A stretch of DNA of 64,000 nt from Escherichia phage nepoznato. Location of the stretch: sequence record NC_052658.1. One strand, 5' to 3'. Below the pieces are notes generated by a model. The model was given only the letters and a program-made list of their open reading frames with translations. It made no database searches and was not told where the DNA came from. Each line of letters starts with the position of its first letter. The first letter of the stretch is position 1. Made by a program: the position numbers and the translations under genes. This document shows, piece by piece, positions 2-45,734 of this stretch.

Positions 2-700
2 GATTATGTAGATGGTGTTATTAATTGCGCCGCTTATACGGCTGTAGATAAGGCAGAACATGATTTTGCTACTGCTTTGGCTGTTAATGCGTATGGACCT
101 GCAAATATTGCGGCAGTGTGCAGCAAACTTAAAATTGATTTTGTGCATATTTCTACAGATTATATTTTTAATTATTCTCATCCTATTTTTGAAGATACTA
201 CACCTAACCCAATAAACAATTATGGGTATACGAAAGAACTTGGTGAAAAAATGGTGCGAGGAGTTAACCCAAATGCATATATTATTCGAACAACCTCGGT
301 ATATAGAGAATTTGGAAATAACTTTCTAAAAACCATGTTGTCTCGCTATAATGATGGACAACGTGATTTTATTATTGTTGCTGATCAGTTCTCTTGTCCA
401 ACATATGCTCCAGATTTAGCAGAAGCTATTTTTGAAGTATTAAAAACAGGTTGGTCAAGGTCTGTTAAGACTTACCATTTTGCAGGAAGCCATCTTATTT
501 CTTGGGCGGAGTTTGCGGAAAAGATCTTGACACAGATGCCAGAACCTGTTAAGATATCGGCGGTATCAGCTTCAACCTATAATGCTCCAGCAGCACGTCC
601 GGTGAAGTCACAACTAGTAACCAGTCACTATCTTACAAAATCAGATTTAAATAAAGGTATTGAACAGTCTTTAGCAGTATTACTTAATAAGGAGAGGTAA
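2..700 (+). CDS. RmlD-family dTDP-4-dehydrorhamnose reductase-like sugar nucleotide reductase (5' end outside window)
   Basis: Frame open from window start; motifs HISTDYIF, YGYTKELGE, IVADQFSCPTYAPDLA typical of RmlD. Confidence 0.7.
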   Translation, partial: DYVDGVINCAAYTAVDKAEHDFATALAVNAYGPANIAAVCSKLKIDFVHISTDYIFNYSHPIFEDTTPNPINNYGYTKELGEKMVRGVNPNAYIIRTTSVYREFGNNFLKTMLSRYNDGQRDFIIVADQFSCPTYAPDLAEAIFEVLKTGWSRSVKTYHFAGSHLISWAEFAEKILTQMPEPVKISAVSASTYNAPAARPVKSQLVTSHYLTKSDLNKGIEQSLAVLLNKER

Positions 701-1122: not shown

Positions 1123-1623
1123 ATGGCTAAAGTAGTAGATGAGTTTGATATGCTACGAGTCGATGAAGGACTGAAGCTTACTGTTTATCAAGACCATCTT
1201 GGTTATTGGACAGTCGGCATAGGACACCTTCTGACTAAAATAAAAGATAAAGCAAAGGCTATTCAAATCTTAGATAATCTTCTTGGTCGTAAGACTAATG
1301 GAGTTATCACAGAAAAAGAAGCCCGTCAAATCTTTGCTGACGATGTTGCAAAAGTGAAGAGAGACATAAAAAACAGTGCTATCTTATCACCAATCTATGA
1401 TAAGGTGAGTGATACTCGTAAATTGGGAATAATTAACATGGTTTTCCAGTTGGGGTTAAAAGGTGCTGAAGGGTTTCAAAATAGCTTGACTTTAATCAGC
1501 AATGCATATTATACTCAAGCAGGTAAAAACATGCGTAAAAGCCGATGGTATAGCCAGACGCCAAACCGTGCTGAACGAGTAATTAAAGTTCTGACTTCTG
1601 GAACTTTAGATGCTTACAACTAA
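1123..1623 (+). CDS. e: T4-type lysozyme (endolysin, GH24 muramidase)
   Basis: Near-colinear match to T4 lysozyme blocks: EGLKL..Y.D..GYWTVGIGHLLTK, INMVFQLG, AGF.NSL, KSRWY.QTPNRA.RVI. Confidence 0.9.
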   Translation: MAKVVDEFDMLRVDEGLKLTVYQDHLGYWTVGIGHLLTKIKDKAKAIQILDNLLGRKTNGVITEKEARQIFADDVAKVKRDIKNSAILSPIYDKVSDTRKLGIINMVFQLGLKGAEGFQNSLTLISNAYYTQAGKNMRKSRWYSQTPNRAERVIKVLTSGTLDAYN

Positions 1624-1626
1624 TAA

Positions 1627-1645
1627 AGGGGCTTCGGCCCCTTCT
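1627..1645 (+). terminator. GGGGC-UUCG-GCCCC tetraloop hairpin (mRNA-stabilising or terminator)
   Basis: Perfect 5-bp GC stem with UUCG loop followed by UUCU; same hairpin recurs at 15124. Confidence 0.4.
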
Positions 1646-1660
1646 AAAAGGAGTGCTACT

Positions 1661-2419
1661 ATGGGAAATAAAACCGCAGCTAAAACACAACGGCAGAAAC
1701 TGGCTAATTCAGCAAAGATTGAAAGCCGTTATGCAGCAAAAGCGGTAGGTAATGACGATTACCGTTTAGATGAATTTATGCCTGAAGGGGACCAAAATAA
1801 GATTGTTCAAAGCATGATTTGGAATGATCTGACTGTTGTAAATGCTCCGGCAGGGACTGGTAAAACCTCTGTTGCTTTATGGAAAGCTTTGCAGATGCTT
1901 CGTTCAGGAGACTTCCGTAAACTACTTTTTATCAAGAACCCTACTGAAGTAGGAGATGATCAGATTGGTTTCTTGTCTGGGGATAAAACAGATAAACTAG
2001 CAGCACACTATGAATCTACAAAACGTATTTTCCAGCAATTCATGACAGCCAACAAATTGGAAAACGATATTGGATCAGGTAAGATCGAATTGAATATTCC
2101 TAACTATTTGTTGGGAGCTACCCTGGATAATACAATTGTCATTATTGACGAAGCACAACTTATGTCAACAGAAACACTTAAACTTCTTATTGAACGTGCA
2201 GGTATTAATACGCATGTTATTGTATTAGGCGATGTTCGCCAGACATATGCAATTAAAAAACGTAGCAATGGTCTGCATCAAATTTTGGAACTTTTATATC
2301 CAGAAAATGAAGAAGGTGTTCGTGAGCCAATTGTAGATTTTATTGGATATGTTGAACTGACAACGGACGATAATAAACGTGGACGTTTGTCTAAACTGAT
2401 TACTGAAGTGTTTATTTAA
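1661..2419 (+). CDS. phoH: PhoH-like ATPase
   Basis: Walker A NAPAGTGKTS, Walker B IIDEAQ, PhoH-like KNPTEVGDDQIGFL and HVIVLGDVRQ; start set to ATG 1661 after hairpin. Confidence 0.85.
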   Translation: MGNKTAAKTQRQKLANSAKIESRYAAKAVGNDDYRLDEFMPEGDQNKIVQSMIWNDLTVVNAPAGTGKTSVALWKALQMLRSGDFRKLLFIKNPTEVGDDQIGFLSGDKTDKLAAHYESTKRIFQQFMTANKLENDIGSGKIELNIPNYLLGATLDNTIVIIDEAQLMSTETLKLLIERAGINTHVIVLGDVRQTYAIKKRSNGLHQILELLYPENEEGVREPIVDFIGYVELTTDDNKRGRLSKLITEVFI

Positions 2420-2451
2420 TAACGTGGCAGGGAAGCCATTTATAAGGAGGA

Positions 2452-2955
2452 TTGATGGGTGTAGCAACAATAGCTATCGGAAGAAGCGGTATAGATGAGT
2501 GCTATCAAACGGGACTCGTAAAACCTAACGAATTTCGTCAAATTTGTGTAAACCATATTGAAAAAGAGATTGCTCTTACTTTAGAGAATATGACCCTCCG
2601 AGATAAACTGGAAATGTTTAAATGTTGGTGTCTAGGAGAAGATTGGCTTTTAAACCATTTTCAAGAACTTTCTGATAGTAAAGAAAGCTTGTTTGATTGT
2701 ATAATAGGAATAGCTGGCTCCGATCCCAGCCTTCTGCACATAACAGAAGAAGAGGCGAAGTTACTGTTCTTAAGTAATTTGTTTAATAAGAAAGCACTGC
2801 TTGTTCGTGATTGTAGTGATCTTCTTAATAACCCGCTCGCAACGTCTGATCAAATTTTTGTTGACAAAGAGACACTACGTGCGATAGAATACATCTGCAA
2901 ATATGTGAATGGCGGGAAAGCGGTTCTTAAAACATTAACAGAGGAGGAAGAATAG
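2452..2955 (+). CDS. hypothetical protein
   Basis: 167-aa ORF with RBS AAGGAGG upstream; no recognisable domain. Confidence 0.5.
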   Translation: MMGVATIAIGRSGIDECYQTGLVKPNEFRQICVNHIEKEIALTLENMTLRDKLEMFKCWCLGEDWLLNHFQELSDSKESLFDCIIGIAGSDPSLLHITEEEAKLLFLSNLFNKKALLVRDCSDLLNNPLATSDQIFVDKETLRAIEYICKYVNGGKAVLKTLTEEEE

Positions 2956-3647
2956 TGACGACAATTATTGCAACCAAGAATAAGATTTTGAGTGATGGTA
3001 AGGTAACTTTTGGCGGACGTGTAGATTCTATTAATTTCAAAAAGGTCCGAAAAATTGGAGATTACCTTGTAGGTGGTGCTGGTCGTCTGACCTCCGTGCT
3101 TTCTTTCTTTCAATGGTTTGAACAAAACCTACAGTGCGAAGCAGCACGTGATGCTGTCCCTGGTTTGATGATTCATTCTGATCCAGACAAAGAAGATGAA
3201 GAGTTTATTGCGCTTGTTGTTCATCCAGACGGACGTATTTTCCTGCACGAAGGTAACAATCCAACACGTGCATATCCGATTGATGAAGAATATTATGCAG
3301 TAGGAAGTGGGTCAGACTTTGCTTTAGCTGCTCTTGATGCAGGGGCAACACCAGAACAAGCTATGGAAGTAGCTAAAAAGCGAGATGCTTTTTCTGGTGG
3401 TGAAACATTTATTGAAGAACAAGACGAGATTATTGAATTAACAGACGATGATTTAGAAAACTTCTCCAAAGAAGAATTAATCAATCTTTTGAAATTCGGT
3501 AATCCCTACGGTGAAGAAGAACCTCGTAACGTGGCAGGTAACGAGGCGGATACTGAAGAAAAATCTGTTGCAGAAAACAACTTGACTTCTAAATCTGAAA
3601 ATATTAATCTCGTAAATGTGGCGGATTTCGAAGGAACCGCTATTTAA
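2955..3647 (+). CDS. HslV-like Ntn-hydrolase peptidase
   Basis: N-terminal MTTII (Thr nucleophile after Met), KKVRK, GGAG, AVGSGSDFALAAL blocks matching HslV; acidic C-terminal extension. Confidence 0.55.
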   Translation: MTTIIATKNKILSDGKVTFGGRVDSINFKKVRKIGDYLVGGAGRLTSVLSFFQWFEQNLQCEAARDAVPGLMIHSDPDKEDEEFIALVVHPDGRIFLHEGNNPTRAYPIDEEYYAVGSGSDFALAALDAGATPEQAMEVAKKRDAFSGGETFIEEQDEIIELTDDDLENFSKEELINLLKFGNPYGEEEPRNVAGNEADTEEKSVAENNLTSKSENINLVNVADFEGTAI

Positions 3648-3653
3648 CAAACT

Positions 3654-3672
3654 GCCCCTTCGGGGGCATTTC
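3654..3672 (+). terminator. GCCCC-UUCG-GGGGC tetraloop hairpin
   Basis: GC stem with UUCG loop followed by AUUUCUU, between two plus-strand genes. Confidence 0.4.
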
Positions 3673-3692
3673 TTAAACATAGGAGATTAATA

Positions 3693-5117: not shown

Positions 5118-5312
5118 ATGCAGAGCGGAGAAGAACTTTTAGAGAAACAATTCTCAACGCGTCAACAAGCTTTAAGTTATATGGTTTTTCTAAGCAATCT
5201 TGATGTGAATGAGATACTTTTACGGCGCGAAGGTAATTTCTGGAGCGTTAAATATCATGCAACAAGGTCTGTAATCTACCTGGAAGAGGCGGAATTCTCT
5301 TTGGTAGAATGA
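5118..5312 (+). CDS. hypothetical protein
   Basis: 64-aa ORF preceded by hairpin and RBS AAGGAGGG. Confidence 0.45.
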   Translation: MQSGEELLEKQFSTRQQALSYMVFLSNLDVNEILLRREGNFWSVKYHATRSVIYLEEAEFSLVE

Positions 5313-5326
5313 TCCGAGGAGTAGTT

Positions 5327-5899
5327 ATGCGTTCAACTTTCACTGGCAAAATAAACGCTGGTTTGATTTTTACCGCAGTAAGCATTCTTAGCAAAAAGTT
5401 TAAAGTTGTTAACTTACCTGTGTGTGTCGATTTCGATCATGTTTTTGATCCTTCGAACCCCACTCGTTGCATAGTAAGGAGTAATGTTGAAAACCCAACA
5501 GAAAATCTTTTTTATGTAACAAAACCATCTCAAAGCATACTTAACCAGGTTGAGGCGAAATTGATACCTAACGGTAAATATTACTCCTTTTTACCTTGTA
5601 AGTCGGTTGAAGTAGAGAATAGCAGTACTTTCGCTAACAACTTGTCTGTATTCGTTTTCTTTGTTTCGCACGAAGATGAAACAGATGAAATGGTAGCAAC
5701 AGTGAGATCACTTTATGACTCTTTAGGGGTTGTTTATAGACAACAAGTGTGCGAAAATAATAAAGCCTGTGTAGATTTCATTATCAACGGTATTTGTGTT
5801 TGTAGAGTAGAATCTTTTTGGCTGCACGATACATATGTGACTGTAGCAGAGGTTATATCTGAACCAAAATTTAGTCATGCTGTTTCGTTAATAATTTGA
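5327..5899 (+). CDS. hypothetical protein
   Basis: Track ORF 5309-5899; start moved to internal ATG preceded by GAGGAG. Confidence 0.45.
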   Translation: MRSTFTGKINAGLIFTAVSILSKKFKVVNLPVCVDFDHVFDPSNPTRCIVRSNVENPTENLFYVTKPSQSILNQVEAKLIPNGKYYSFLPCKSVEVENSSTFANNLSVFVFFVSHEDETDEMVATVRSLYDSLGVVYRQQVCENNKACVDFIINGICVCRVESFWLHDTYVTVAEVISEPKFSHAVSLII

Positions 5900-42998: not shown

Positions 42999-43341
42999 AA
43001 ACTGCGTCTGCGTCGATGAGTTTGTGTTTGTTGTTCCGCATGTAGTCTAAGATAAGTAGACGTTTATTGTATCTGGAGAGATTATGACCCTCTTTTCCGC
43101 CATAGTCAAAATATTTTGCAAGATCTTTACACTCAAACAAAATCAGTTCGGGAGTTTCTTCACACTGGTCTGTCTGGTACACTTGACGAATGATCATGTA
43201 TACATCATCGTCTTCCGCTAAATGCTCTACTGGTCCACATCCAGCAGGAACAAATTCATAGTCCCATCGGATCAGATGTTTCTCTACTGCTTCAAAGAAA
43301 TCCATCCTTTCGTTGCGCATAATTTGAACGTCAACTAACAT
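42976..43341 (-). CDS. hypothetical protein
   Basis: 121-aa ORF. Confidence 0.45.
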   Translation of the reverse strand: MLVDVQIMRNERMDFFEAVEKHLIRWDYEFVPAGCGPVEHLAEDDDVYMIIRQVYQTDQCEETPELILFECKDLAKYFDYGGKEGHNLSRYNKRLLILDYMRNNKHKLIDADAVYGYWWMD

Positions 43342-44519
43342 GTTTCCTCCTGTAATGTTCCACCATAAAGTTTATAAATGTTTTGTATTGATGCCATGCA
43401 AGATAACTCCGCTGTCTCTGTGTAGCCATCTGGCATAGCATATTTGCTCACTGCTTCCGTGTGAAGGACACGCTTACAACGCTTTTCTGCATCTTTGCAT
43501 TGCTTCACAGTAGGGAAGTGCCACACTTGGCCCTGTTTCATAGTAAACACATTACGACTATTTTGTTCTTTGATACGGCGATTACTATTATTAGCAATAC
43601 CAAACTTCAGTGCACAGATAATATCTTGCTCATCGTAAATATAATTAATGTAGGCTTGTTGTTGATTTTTGTTAGCACACTGCGGACAACCTTGTCCTAT
43701 GTTTAAAAGGTTGTTTGCAGTTCCTTTTTGTTCCCCATGACTCTTACATACATATTTAAACTTACCTATAGAAGATGGTTTGGTAATCCATCCTATCCAA
43801 ACATACCCTTTCTTTTCTATTTTCTTTCTTACTTTATACGTAATCTGTTCCGCTGTATACCTATAAGATGCAGAGCAACGGCAGGGTAAGTGTCCATATT
43901 TAAGATTGCTACGCGTCATATAAAACTTACCATCACATAGTCCAGCTTTAACATATTCATCATGAGAACAAACAGGACACTGAACCATCCATACCGGATC
44001 ACACCCTTTACGTTCCCCCGTGTTGGTGAAAATAGTGCCTTCCTTAAACTTCCCTGTAGAAAAGAAATCTGCAATATGTTGATCGTCGGGTATTGTTTGT
44101 GACCTCCTTGTGTTCTCATACCTACATATAAGACAACCACTGCCATGTTTAAAACTATCAAAACTACATGTATTCCATTCATGACCATACCTACAACGTA
44201 GCATCATTTTCGTACGCGCACCTTTAAACGGTTCTACGATACCTATGATGGTAATCCCCTTAGCTTCCGCTATTGGTTTACATTCAGTAAGGTATGTTTT
44301 TAAATCTTTAATTTGACCTGCACACATAGGACAACCACTACCACGTTTAAAACTGTTAATACTTGTAGTATCCCATTTATAACCACAATGACACAACAAA
44401 TCAAGTTTTGTATTAACCCCTTTCCATTCTCCCGTCCATCCTAAGATTTGGATTTGCTTACTCTCTGCTATGGGTTGACACTCTTCTTTATATTGTTCCC
44501 ATGATTTTGGTGCTGCCAT
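43335..44519 (-). CDS. Cys-rich protein with three tandem zinc-ribbon-like repeats
   Basis: Three repeats of GW.G......L.C.CG..W.T....F..GSGC..C in 394 aa; function unknown, possibly nuclease-associated. Confidence 0.5.
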   Translation of the reverse strand: MAAPKSWEQYKEECQPIAESKQIQILGWTGEWKGVNTKLDLLCHCGYKWDTTSINSFKRGSGCPMCAGQIKDLKTYLTECKPIAEAKGITIIGIVEPFKGARTKMMLRCRYGHEWNTCSFDSFKHGSGCLICRYENTRRSQTIPDDQHIADFFSTGKFKEGTIFTNTGERKGCDPVWMVQCPVCSHDEYVKAGLCDGKFYMTRSNLKYGHLPCRCSASYRYTAEQITYKVRKKIEKKGYVWIGWITKPSSIGKFKYVCKSHGEQKGTANNLLNIGQGCPQCANKNQQQAYINYIYDEQDIICALKFGIANNSNRRIKEQNSRNVFTMKQGQVWHFPTVKQCKDAEKRCKRVLHTEAVSKYAMPDGYTETAELSCMASIQNIYKLYGGTLQEETC

Positions 44520-44594: not shown

Positions 44595-45734
44595 TTAGAA
44601 CACGCTACCTAATGTGGTGGAACGTTGTGTTACAGGCTCCAGCACCACTCGCAGAGTGTTTCCTGGTGTAGTGCTCATCACCAGAATCTTACCACCTTCA
44701 ATCAGATCACAAGTTAGACCATCAGCAGTTGCACACAGATCAATATGTGGGTCGCCATCTTCATCCAGGATAACATAACTGTTGGTTTCCATTGCTTCCA
44801 CTTCATCATCTTTCAAACTTTGCAGATAGATGTTCAGGGAACAAGCACCCGACAAAAACTTAGTAGGGGTGAAGTCGTGCCAGTTATTGATCCAATTCAC
44901 CTTCAGGGTTTTGCCATTAGCTACGATAGAAGCCACATTCCATTTAGCATCGTTGCCTAAAGAAATACCCATCATTTCCAGACATTCTTTAAAAGTCATT
45001 TTTGGATAGAAATTCAATTCTTCTACAATACCTTGAATAACATCAAAAGACAACTCTGTGCTAACATCCCATAAACGTTGGAAGTTATCTACGTGTTTTT
45101 TATTTACCAAGTTCTTATCCAAGTAATCTAACATAGTTTCACTAGACAGTTTATCGTAATTGAAACTGTAATAGATACGACTAGGACGGTTTACAAAATA
45201 TTCCGAGATATAGCCACTATTTTTAGTGAGGATGTAAAGTTTATTTCCACTTCCTGTTCCATCCAACAAGGTCAACAGTGCTTCCTGATCTTCTTTCTTA
45301 GCGTACACTTTATCAAATTCGTCAAATAAAACAACAGCACGATCTGTAATTTTACTCATAAATTCTAAGAAGCCAGCATCTGTGTAAGGCTGTGTAACCA
45401 AAATGGTTGGAATACCTAAACCTTCTGTGGACATTAGAGACATGCTAATCAGTTTAGCTAACATCGTCTTACCACTGCCCTTTGTCCCTGTCAGTAACAC
45501 CCCAGTATTTTTACCTTCTTTACTACGACGAGCAAATGTTTTAATAACATGTGCGGCGCGGTCTTTAGTTTCCCCATAAAGAGTGTTCGGAAGAGAGAAA
45601 CTTTCGCCACGCACTAAAGAGTAGTTACCGTGCGGATCGCAGTTGACAACCCAAACTCCAGCAGGAAGTTTATTAGCTTCAACACCATATTCCTTATTTA
45701 CAACAGCCACATCTCCAAAAATAGTGTATTTCAT
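44595..45734 (-). CDS. AAA-type ATPase
   Basis: Walker A GTKGSGKT, Walker B VLFDEFDK. Confidence 0.6.
   Translation of the reverse strand: MKYTIFGDVAVVNKEYGVEANKLPAGVWVVNCDPHGNYSLVRGESFSLPNTLYGETKDRAAHVIKTFARRSKEGKNTGVLLTGTKGSGKTMLAKLISMSLMSTEGLGIPTILVTQPYTDAGFLEFMSKITDRAVVLFDEFDKVYAKKEDQEALLTLLDGTGSGNKLYILTKNSGYISEYFVNRPSRIYYSFNYDKLSSETMLDYLDKNLVNKKHVDNFQRLWDVSTELSFDVIQGIVEELNFYPKMTFKECLEMMGISLGNDAKWNVASIVANGKTLKVNWINNWHDFTPTKFLSGACSLNIYLQSLKDDEVEAMETNSYVILDEDGDPHIDLCATADGLTCDLIEGGKILVMSTTPGNTLRVVLEPVTQRSTTLGSVF

Follow-up and report, generated by a model that had tools for sequence, protein, structure and literature searches.

Proteins of the PPH kind, given as ~140 residues long, and a related group with C-terminal extensions, RPC, were described by Fuchs, Alva and Lupas in 2021. 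Both groups are stated to be without helix H2, and the tailed RPC proteins were listed from proteobacterial genomes only, not from phages (PMC8665760). Phage peptidases of this type have since 2021 been termed the first viral members of the proteasome family. The other system for comparison is HslV of Escherichia coli (ClpQ, b3932), the peptidase subunit of HslVU, whose defining traits include a dodecamer of two stacked hexameric rings and dependence on an HslU ATPase. Here, we describe a 230-residue protein encoded in a stretch of 64,000 nucleotides from Escherichia phage nepoznato (NC_052658.1), which is referred to in full as the window. The protein almost certainly belongs to the phage-specific, minimal proteasome-like family represented by PPH and phrog_1040, and carries, in addition to a compact catalytic core, an acidic C-terminal tail with a conserved motif.

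Family membership and predicted fold

The open reading frame (ORF) in which a reading of the sequence alone (the sequence-only reading) had seen an HslV-like N-terminal-nucleophile (Ntn) peptidase was recovered with exactly the same coordinates and length. Its translation begins MTTIIATKNK (MTTIIATKNKILSDGK...), so that the MTTII start, with Thr directly after Met, also holds. The coding sequence and its parts are as follows.

2955..3647, + strand: peptidase coding sequence, with a GTG start and a TAA stop (3645-3647); 230 residues
2955..3419, + strand: catalytic core, residues 1-155, based on the AlphaFold2 (AF2) model, conserved columns and the alignment with E. coli HslV
3438..3500, + strand: conserved tail motif, residues 162-182 (LTDDDLENFSKEELINLLKFG), with two short predicted helices (164-168 and 172-181)
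3501..3644, + strand: variable acidic end, residues 183-230, predicted to be disordered, with a predicted local distance difference test (pLDDT) score of <50 at residues 190-219

Profile searches against HslV and proteasome families placed the protein in PHROG family phrog_1040 ("peptidase HslV family") with an E-value of 1.6e-63 over residues 1-229, and in Pfam family PF00227 (Proteasome) with 25.6 bits, narrowly above the gathering score of 22.4. The best matches among the sequences of solved structures are HslV proteins, with E-values from 4.9e-9 (Thermotoga HslV, 1m4y) to 1e-4. The similarity to HslV and proteasome proteins is thus far beyond chance. Both NCBIfam equivalog models for HslV, in contrast, score well below their cut-offs (TIGR03692 and NF003964; 31.4 bits versus 157.75 and 32.2 versus 137). 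Because of these scores, and of a sequence identity of 28% to E. coli HslV, the protein is, as judged from sequence comparison, not an HslV orthologue. What stands of the original assignment is a Thr-peptidase homologue with the HslV/proteasome-beta fold.

The window comes from an E. coli myovirus of the phAPEC8-like type, a Phapecoctavirus (Stephanstirmvirinae) with a genome of ~150 kb; across 5.2 kb, its identity to phages DIJ07P2 and ukendt amounts to 99.4-99.5%. RefSeq already names the gene "peptidase HslV family" in such phages at 99-100% protein identity (e.g. YP_009986814.1 in NC_052661.1), and the window protein is 99.6% identical to the products of genes annotated in this way; other submitters have used "ATP-dependent protease subunit", "putative proteasome component" and "nucleophile aminohydrolase". 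The RefSeq name is correct at the superfamily level and should not be taken to denote an HslV orthologue. As the gene has already been annotated and its family described, little here is new; what still makes the protein interesting is its function and the conserved tail motif, which provides a concrete experimental handle.

Phage proteasome-like peptidases are widespread. Homologues are present in 232 phage records, including phages of Escherichia, Klebsiella, Serratia, Aeromonas, Vibrio and Shewanella, as well as of Caulobacter, Rhizobium, Erythrobacter and Pseudomonas; as far as seen, all of the hosts are proteobacteria. All other phage homologues tested, including distant members from Caulobacter, Pseudomonas, Vibrio and Aeromonas phages, match phrog_1040. 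A family profile searched against 1.84 billion cluster representatives retrieved 5432 clusters (at 50% identity) with E-values of 1e-10 or better, and most of the best 150 of these are 137-160 residues long. BFVD contributes 42 viral structure models at E-values up to 1e-3. The window itself contains no second proteasome-like gene, as determined with the family hidden Markov model against all six-frame ORFs. Aeromonas phage 2L372D (NC_048769.1) has two such genes side by side (L004:3432-3983 and L004:4001-4885), both of which match phrog_1040; the first encodes a tail-less form of 183 residues beginning (M)TCIIA, and the second a tailed form of 294 residues. The two could be a heteromeric pair, or could result from a recent duplication or acquisition.

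The AF2 model, with a mean pLDDT of 83 and values of >90 over most of the core, displays a proteasome-type sandwich with a long helix at residues 45-67, a coil at 68-83, a strand at 84-89, and helices at 120-128 and 133-143. Helix H2, which would lie between H1 and the next strand (residues 68-83), is absent from the model. A Foldseek search with the model identified HslV structures (6kui, 1m4y and 1g3i) with E-values of ~1e-10 and a target-normalised template modelling (TM) score of ~0.7, followed by BPH (5ovs) and 20S beta subunits with E-values up to ~1e-8; no close relative was found among the solved structures. In the alignment with E. coli HslV, gaps face HslV residues 9-12, 38-39, 79-85, 93-97 and 133-141. 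The statement of the sequence-only reading that the HslV blocks are kept through the core is thus valid for the catalytic blocks, which align, but not for these five segments or for H2.

The resemblance to E. coli HslV extends to the fold, the MTTI N-terminus and the catalytic residues. The window protein differs in the loss of HslV residues 79-85 (H2, including Ala79 and Lys80), 93-97 and 133-141, in the absence of an adjacent hslU gene, in its extra acidic tail, and in having Asp-x-x-Ser-Gly-Gly where E. coli HslV has Gly-Asp-Ile-Cys-Ile-Tyr. The hslV gene of E. coli K-12 (L008:2758-3288, - strand) also has a GTG start followed by Thr-Thr-Ile, like the phage gene. With BPH (5ovs) and the 20S beta subunits (PF00227), the window protein shares the Gly-Ser-Gly and Asp...Ser-Gly-Gly blocks, with Foldseek E-values of ~4e-10 to 1e-8 and the PF00227 match above threshold; it is, however, much smaller, has no H2, propeptide or alpha-type partner subunit, and reaches a lower target-normalised TM score of ~0.55. 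The closest correspondence is to PPH, in carriage by tailed phages, lack of a propeptide, the Met-Thr start, the compact core without H2, the equivalents of Thr1, Asp17, Lys33 and Gly47, and the beta-sheet core with the oxyanion-hole Gly. The difference is one of length, with a 155-residue core and a 75-residue tail (230 residues) compared to ~140 residues. The placement with respect to PPH (reference WP_042125023.1) and RPC (WP_140207863) follows the published descriptions and is provisional.

Active site and C-terminal tail

Alignment to HslV of E. coli K-12 assigns counterparts to T2, D14, K30, G43 and G117-S118-G119 of the proteasome-type catalytic set, including the Thr nucleophile, whose loss on precise alignment would have contradicted the original assignment. 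Conservation was assessed in 230 sampled relatives, many of which are representatives of clusters at 50% identity. Codons, HslV equivalents and the number of relatives that retain each residue are listed below.

2958-2960, + strand: T2 (Thr1 of HslV), retained in 223
2994-2996, + strand: D14 (Asp17), retained in 225
3042-3044, + strand: K30 (Lys33), retained in 228
3081-3083, + strand: G43 (Gly48), retained in 227
3303-3311, + strand: G117-S118-G119 (Gly-Ser124-Gly), retained in 230, 216 (plus 12 with Thr) and 230, respectively
3384-3386, + strand: D144, retained in 223
3393-3395, + strand: S147, Ser or Thr in 226 (166 Ser and 60 Thr)

D144 and S147 belong to the Asp-x-x-Ser-Gly-Gly block and resemble Asp166 and Ser169 of the 20S beta subunits. 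The N-terminus is equally constant: nearly all of 88 closer homologues start with MTTI, and MTTI or MTTV is found at the start of 128 of 145 additional cluster representatives from the profile search. Methionine aminopeptidase removes a Met that precedes Thr; therefore, no autoprocessing would be needed to expose the nucleophile, just as in E. coli HslV. Given that the catalytic set is complete and hardly varies across the 230 relatives, the enzyme is very probably active, as far as can be judged from its sequence.

The acidic character that the sequence-only reading had ascribed to the C-terminal tail is confirmed by composition, with 20 Asp and Glu versus 5 Lys and Arg in the 75 residues from 156 to 230. 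Tails of more than 30 residues are present in 136 of the 230 relatives, and 96% of these long tails carry a net negative charge; a further 79 relatives have 12 or fewer residues past the core and are effectively tail-less, with the active site kept. The two helices of the tail motif, which takes up roughly the initial 25 residues of the tail, are predicted with pLDDT values of 86-91, and the motif is kept in tailed relatives down to ~40% identity. Its strict six-residue core, which sits ~15 residues past the core domain, occurs in 97 of the 136 tailed relatives, versus a mean of 0.38 for shuffled tails, and most of the other tails have close variants. Position by position, 105 unique tails yield the consensus (L/I)-T-x-E-x-(L/A)-x-x-(M/F/L)-(S/T)-K-E-(E/Q)-L-(L/I)-x-(L/M)-(L/I)-(L/F)-(T/G)-G. 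From about residue 183 onward, the tail cannot be aligned beyond close relatives. Tailed members also have a fixed connector of 26 residues after H1, whereas the median in tail-less members is 17. Although statistically real, this association between tail and connector is confounded by shared ancestry; the connector is therefore a subgroup signature and not evidence of contact with the tail.

The variable tail end is occupied in other phages by a Cys-rich domain, a Lys-rich helical segment or a Rho_N/Ish1-like module. The Cys-containing variant (P0061-P0071) has a K-G-x-C-x-x-C motif in P0061-P0063 and a W-(K/R)-L-H-N-A ending in most members, and returned no family match. Many distant tailed homologues end in a module of ~35 residues, L..LA..L.I.YAHNIG.EKL..RI, which is absent from the window protein; it is found, for example, at residues 205-237 of P0111, at residues 235-269 of gp056 of Vibrio phage qdvp001 (L005:4001-4831) and in many of P0096-P0135. 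This module gives weak, sub-threshold matches to Rho_N/Ish1 (helix-extended-helix, HeH) and a match to phrog_2130, which suggests a shuffled targeting module.

Within residues 162-172 of the tail motif (3438-3470, + strand), the stretch T-D-D-D-L-E-N-F-S-K resembles the HslV-activating C-terminus of E. coli HslU, A-D-E-D-L-S-R-F-I-L (L008:1417-2748, - strand). The resemblance, at Asp, Asp, Leu and Phe, was noted by eye and concerns a short and compositionally simple segment, of which only the Glu, the Leu/Ala and the hydrophobic positions are conserved across the family.

It is conceivable, although we regard it as quite unlikely, that the tailed subgroup represents a self-activating, HslU-independent mini-proteasome. 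The motif would then dock, in cis or in trans, in the inter-subunit groove vacated by H2 and replace the activating tail of the motor, and the variable end would target the enzyme. It might be directed at the nucleoid or at certain proteins of the host, for instance in host takeover or counter-defence. The targeting end would be acidic and disordered in the window protein, compared to HeH/Rho_N-like or Cys-rich ends in other phages.

Relation to HslU and mode of action

In HslV, the C-terminus of HslU is accommodated by Phe54, Phe57, Gln114, Ala79 and Lys80 (PMC6429459). Of these five, Phe57 is retained in the window protein (F52), Phe54 and Gln114 are both replaced by Leu (L49 and L97, respectively), and Ala79 and Lys80 fall in a deletion common to every phage member aligned. 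Additionally, Lys28 of E. coli HslV, which we take to be a partner of the HslU C-terminal carboxylate, is replaced by Ser. A phmmer search with E. coli HslU as the query and the filters switched off, run on all six-frame ORFs of the window and of the near-identical complete ukendt genome, detected no HslU homologue (best E-value 0.95), and none is annotated in the latter genome. Canonical docking of host HslU is therefore unsupported and, on the structural model, disfavoured: H2 and the Ala79/Lys80 positions are missing, Gln114 is replaced, and the phage has no HslU gene of its own. The proposal of the sequence-only reading that the protein acts with host HslU found no positive evidence, and use of host HslU should not be assumed from the RefSeq name of the gene. 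The broader question of whether the protein is independent of HslU altogether is, in our judgement, evenly balanced.

The account that we favor, by somewhat better than an even call, is that of an active, stand-alone N-terminal-Thr peptidase of the PPH/phrog_1040 family that would be made early or midway through infection, with the tail motif as a docking or assembly element. Host methionine aminopeptidase could remove Met and expose the Thr nucleophile, with no propeptide involved, as in E. coli HslV. The full proteasome-type set (Thr1, Asp17, Lys33, the oxyanion-hole Gly, Gly-Ser-Gly and Asp-x-x-Ser) is present and under strong purifying selection, and the protein would hydrolyze peptide bonds, presumably without canonical docking of host HslU, given the loss of H2 and part of the pocket and the lack of a phage HslU. 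The two-helix tail motif may serve to dock a partner, a substrate or a neighboring subunit, and the variable acidic end would be a disordered appendage. The position of the gene among lysozyme, PhoH, nucleotide-metabolism and methyltransferase genes suggests a cytoplasmic role at an early or middle stage of infection, and not one in head maturation. Should the enzyme prove both active and HslU-independent, no smaller proteasome-type protease would be known, and large lytic phages would have in it a route to reshape the host proteome.

The gene is probably accessory rather than essential. In phage VEcB (NC_052663.1, 21498-22298; P0066), residues 1-113 of PhoH are fused in frame to the peptidase from residue 65 to its end. 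The junction lies at an Ala-Ala common to both (microhomology), and the PhoH C-terminus, the intervening ORF, and Thr1, Asp17 and Lys33 of the peptidase are lost. If this fusion is genuine, the gene is dispensable for propagation.

Several points weigh against the favored account. On helix H1, Phe57 and the hydrophobic character of Phe54 are kept, and the alignment near the H2 deletion is divergent and may be off by a few residues. The hosts are proteobacterial throughout, so the phyletic pattern may be compatible with HslU dependence; proteobacterial hosts of such phages generally carry hslVU. The VEcB deletion is a single record, which may reflect an assembly error or a laboratory artefact. 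Finally, no biochemical or genetic study of any family member was found in the literature, where mentions are at the level of annotation only.

Four other explanations were considered and ranked by likelihood, from an HslU hybrid, through a non-protease Ntn activity and a non-catalytic decoy, to a virion maturation protease. In the first, HslV-like hexameric rings would recruit E. coli HslU and act in an ATP-dependent manner with altered specificity, or would compete with host HslV. The homology to HslV, which extends to the MTTI start and the catalytic residues, the Phe at the Phe57 position and hydrophobic Leu at the Phe54 position of H1, the proteobacterial hosts, and the lack of a phage unfoldase linked to the gene are all consistent with such a hybrid. 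It is nevertheless considered unlikely: H2 is absent from the model, Ala79 and Lys80 are deleted and Gln114 is changed to Leu, the scores against the HslV equivalogs reach only about one-fifth of the cut-offs, and HslV has nothing that corresponds to the added tail.

The phage encodes one classical AAA ATPase (44595-45734, - strand; 379 residues; PF00004, phrog_2376), which was examined as a dedicated unfoldase for the peptidase and rejected, since its homologues occur in Enterococcus, Bacillus, Staphylococcus and Lactococcus phages, a spread different from that of the peptidase. The family is common to Herelleviridae and jumbo phages. The adjoining ORF of 394 residues (43335-44519, - strand), named "endonuclease" in RefSeq, contains repeated, Cys-rich GSGCP.C motifs.

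A still weaker candidate is an Ntn enzyme without general protease activity. Such a protein would use the proteasome fold to perform a single specific cleavage or a transpeptidation or ligation (as in connectase), or to hydrolyze a non-protein amide, and might do so as a monomer or small oligomer instead of a chambered ring. Fuchs et al. noted that a number of the newly identified homologues do not seem suited to forming stacked rings, and that connectase acts as a ligase (PMC8665760). The very small core (~140-155 residues) without H2 and the lack of an unfoldase linked to the peptidase point in the same direction. The complete proteasome-type hydrolytic set, however, is conserved, including the Asp166/Ser169 equivalents and Gly-Ser-Gly, and the nearest structures are those of bona fide proteases (HslV, BPH and 20S beta), which makes this explanation rather improbable.

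The protein could also act as a decoy or inhibitor that poisons host HslV rings or uses its tail to titrate a host factor, the active site being a relic. The conservation of the tail motif and the apparent dispensability of the gene in VEcB would fit. The catalytic residues, however, are near-invariant across clusters of less than 50% identity, which argues for selection on catalysis, and the active site is also kept in the 79 effectively tail-less relatives; we give this explanation very little weight. Least credible is a maturation protease of the prohead or virion that would cleave structural proteins of the phage; phages commonly encode such proteases, and the sequence-only reading had proposed that phage proteins could be processed. 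Against it, the gene lies >30 kb from the portal and capsid genes (in ukendt, within the lysozyme-PhoH-nucleotide metabolism block at 66.6-67.3 kb, versus 99-104 kb for the portal, decoration and major head genes, with the portal and major head genes at 99.4-104.0 kb), the PhoH-linked position recurs in Aeromonas and Vibrio phages, and we know of no prohead protease with a proteasome-like fold.

Flanking signals and genomic context

The sequence around the peptidase gene contains the following features.

2455..2955, + strand: upstream ORF of 166 residues, phrog_14834, function unknown
2861..2890, + strand: putative sigma-70-like promoter, TTGACA-18-TAGAAT, 11 of 12 positions; a consensus match only
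2941..2947, + strand: Shine-Dalgarno-like GAGGAGG, 7 nt 5' of the GTG, read from the sequence
3653..3674, + strand: terminator-like hairpin TGCCCCTTCGGGGGCA followed by TTTCTT, 6 nt 3' of the stop; a consensus match only

The GTG at 2955-2957 is the sole possible start: an in-frame TAA is located at 2928-2930, and the sequence between it and 2955 contains no ATG, GTG or TTG. The GTG shares one base with the TAG stop of the upstream ORF (TAGTG), an arrangement that would make translational coupling of the two possible. The putative promoter lies inside the upstream ORF, ~65 nt before the peptidase start.

The peptidase gene is the last of a co-directional block consisting of glutaredoxin, lysozyme, PhoH, the 166-residue ORF and the peptidase. 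The order lysozyme, PhoH, small ORFs and peptidase (window 1123-3647, + strand) is also found in Aeromonas phage 2L372D (L004) and Vibrio phage qdvp001 (L005), an order that these large myoviruses probably inherited from a common ancestor; where phages are smaller or more distantly related, small unannotated ORFs surround the gene. No recurrent partner or ATPase was found near three distant metagenomic members, which are surrounded only by small unannotated ORFs, and PADLOC returned no defence-system match for the peptidase or its neighbors.

The 166-residue ORF was considered as an inactive alpha-like subunit and rejected (hhalign probability of 0.1 versus the peptidase family, no Pfam match and no conserved N-terminal Thr); its family is confined to close relatives. 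A conserved upstream partner gene was likewise rejected, as the preceding ORFs in qdvp001 and 2L372D are unlike that of the window and unlike each other.

Downstream of the peptidase are genes for methyltransferases, a Ser/Thr phosphatase, and DprA-like and Sir2-like proteins. An ORF of 196 residues (5309-5899, + strand) is named "histidyl tRNA synthetase" through phrog_4806, with no Pfam match; the name is doubtful given its size. Upstream of the block are NrdAB and the genes of the dTDP-rhamnose pathway. The pathway is complete, with dTDP-glucose 4,6-dehydratase, glucose-1-phosphate thymidylyltransferase, 3,5-epimerase and reductase. Its genes are located upstream, in L001:4323-7601, and at window positions 77-700 (+ strand), and the window itself begins within the reductase gene.

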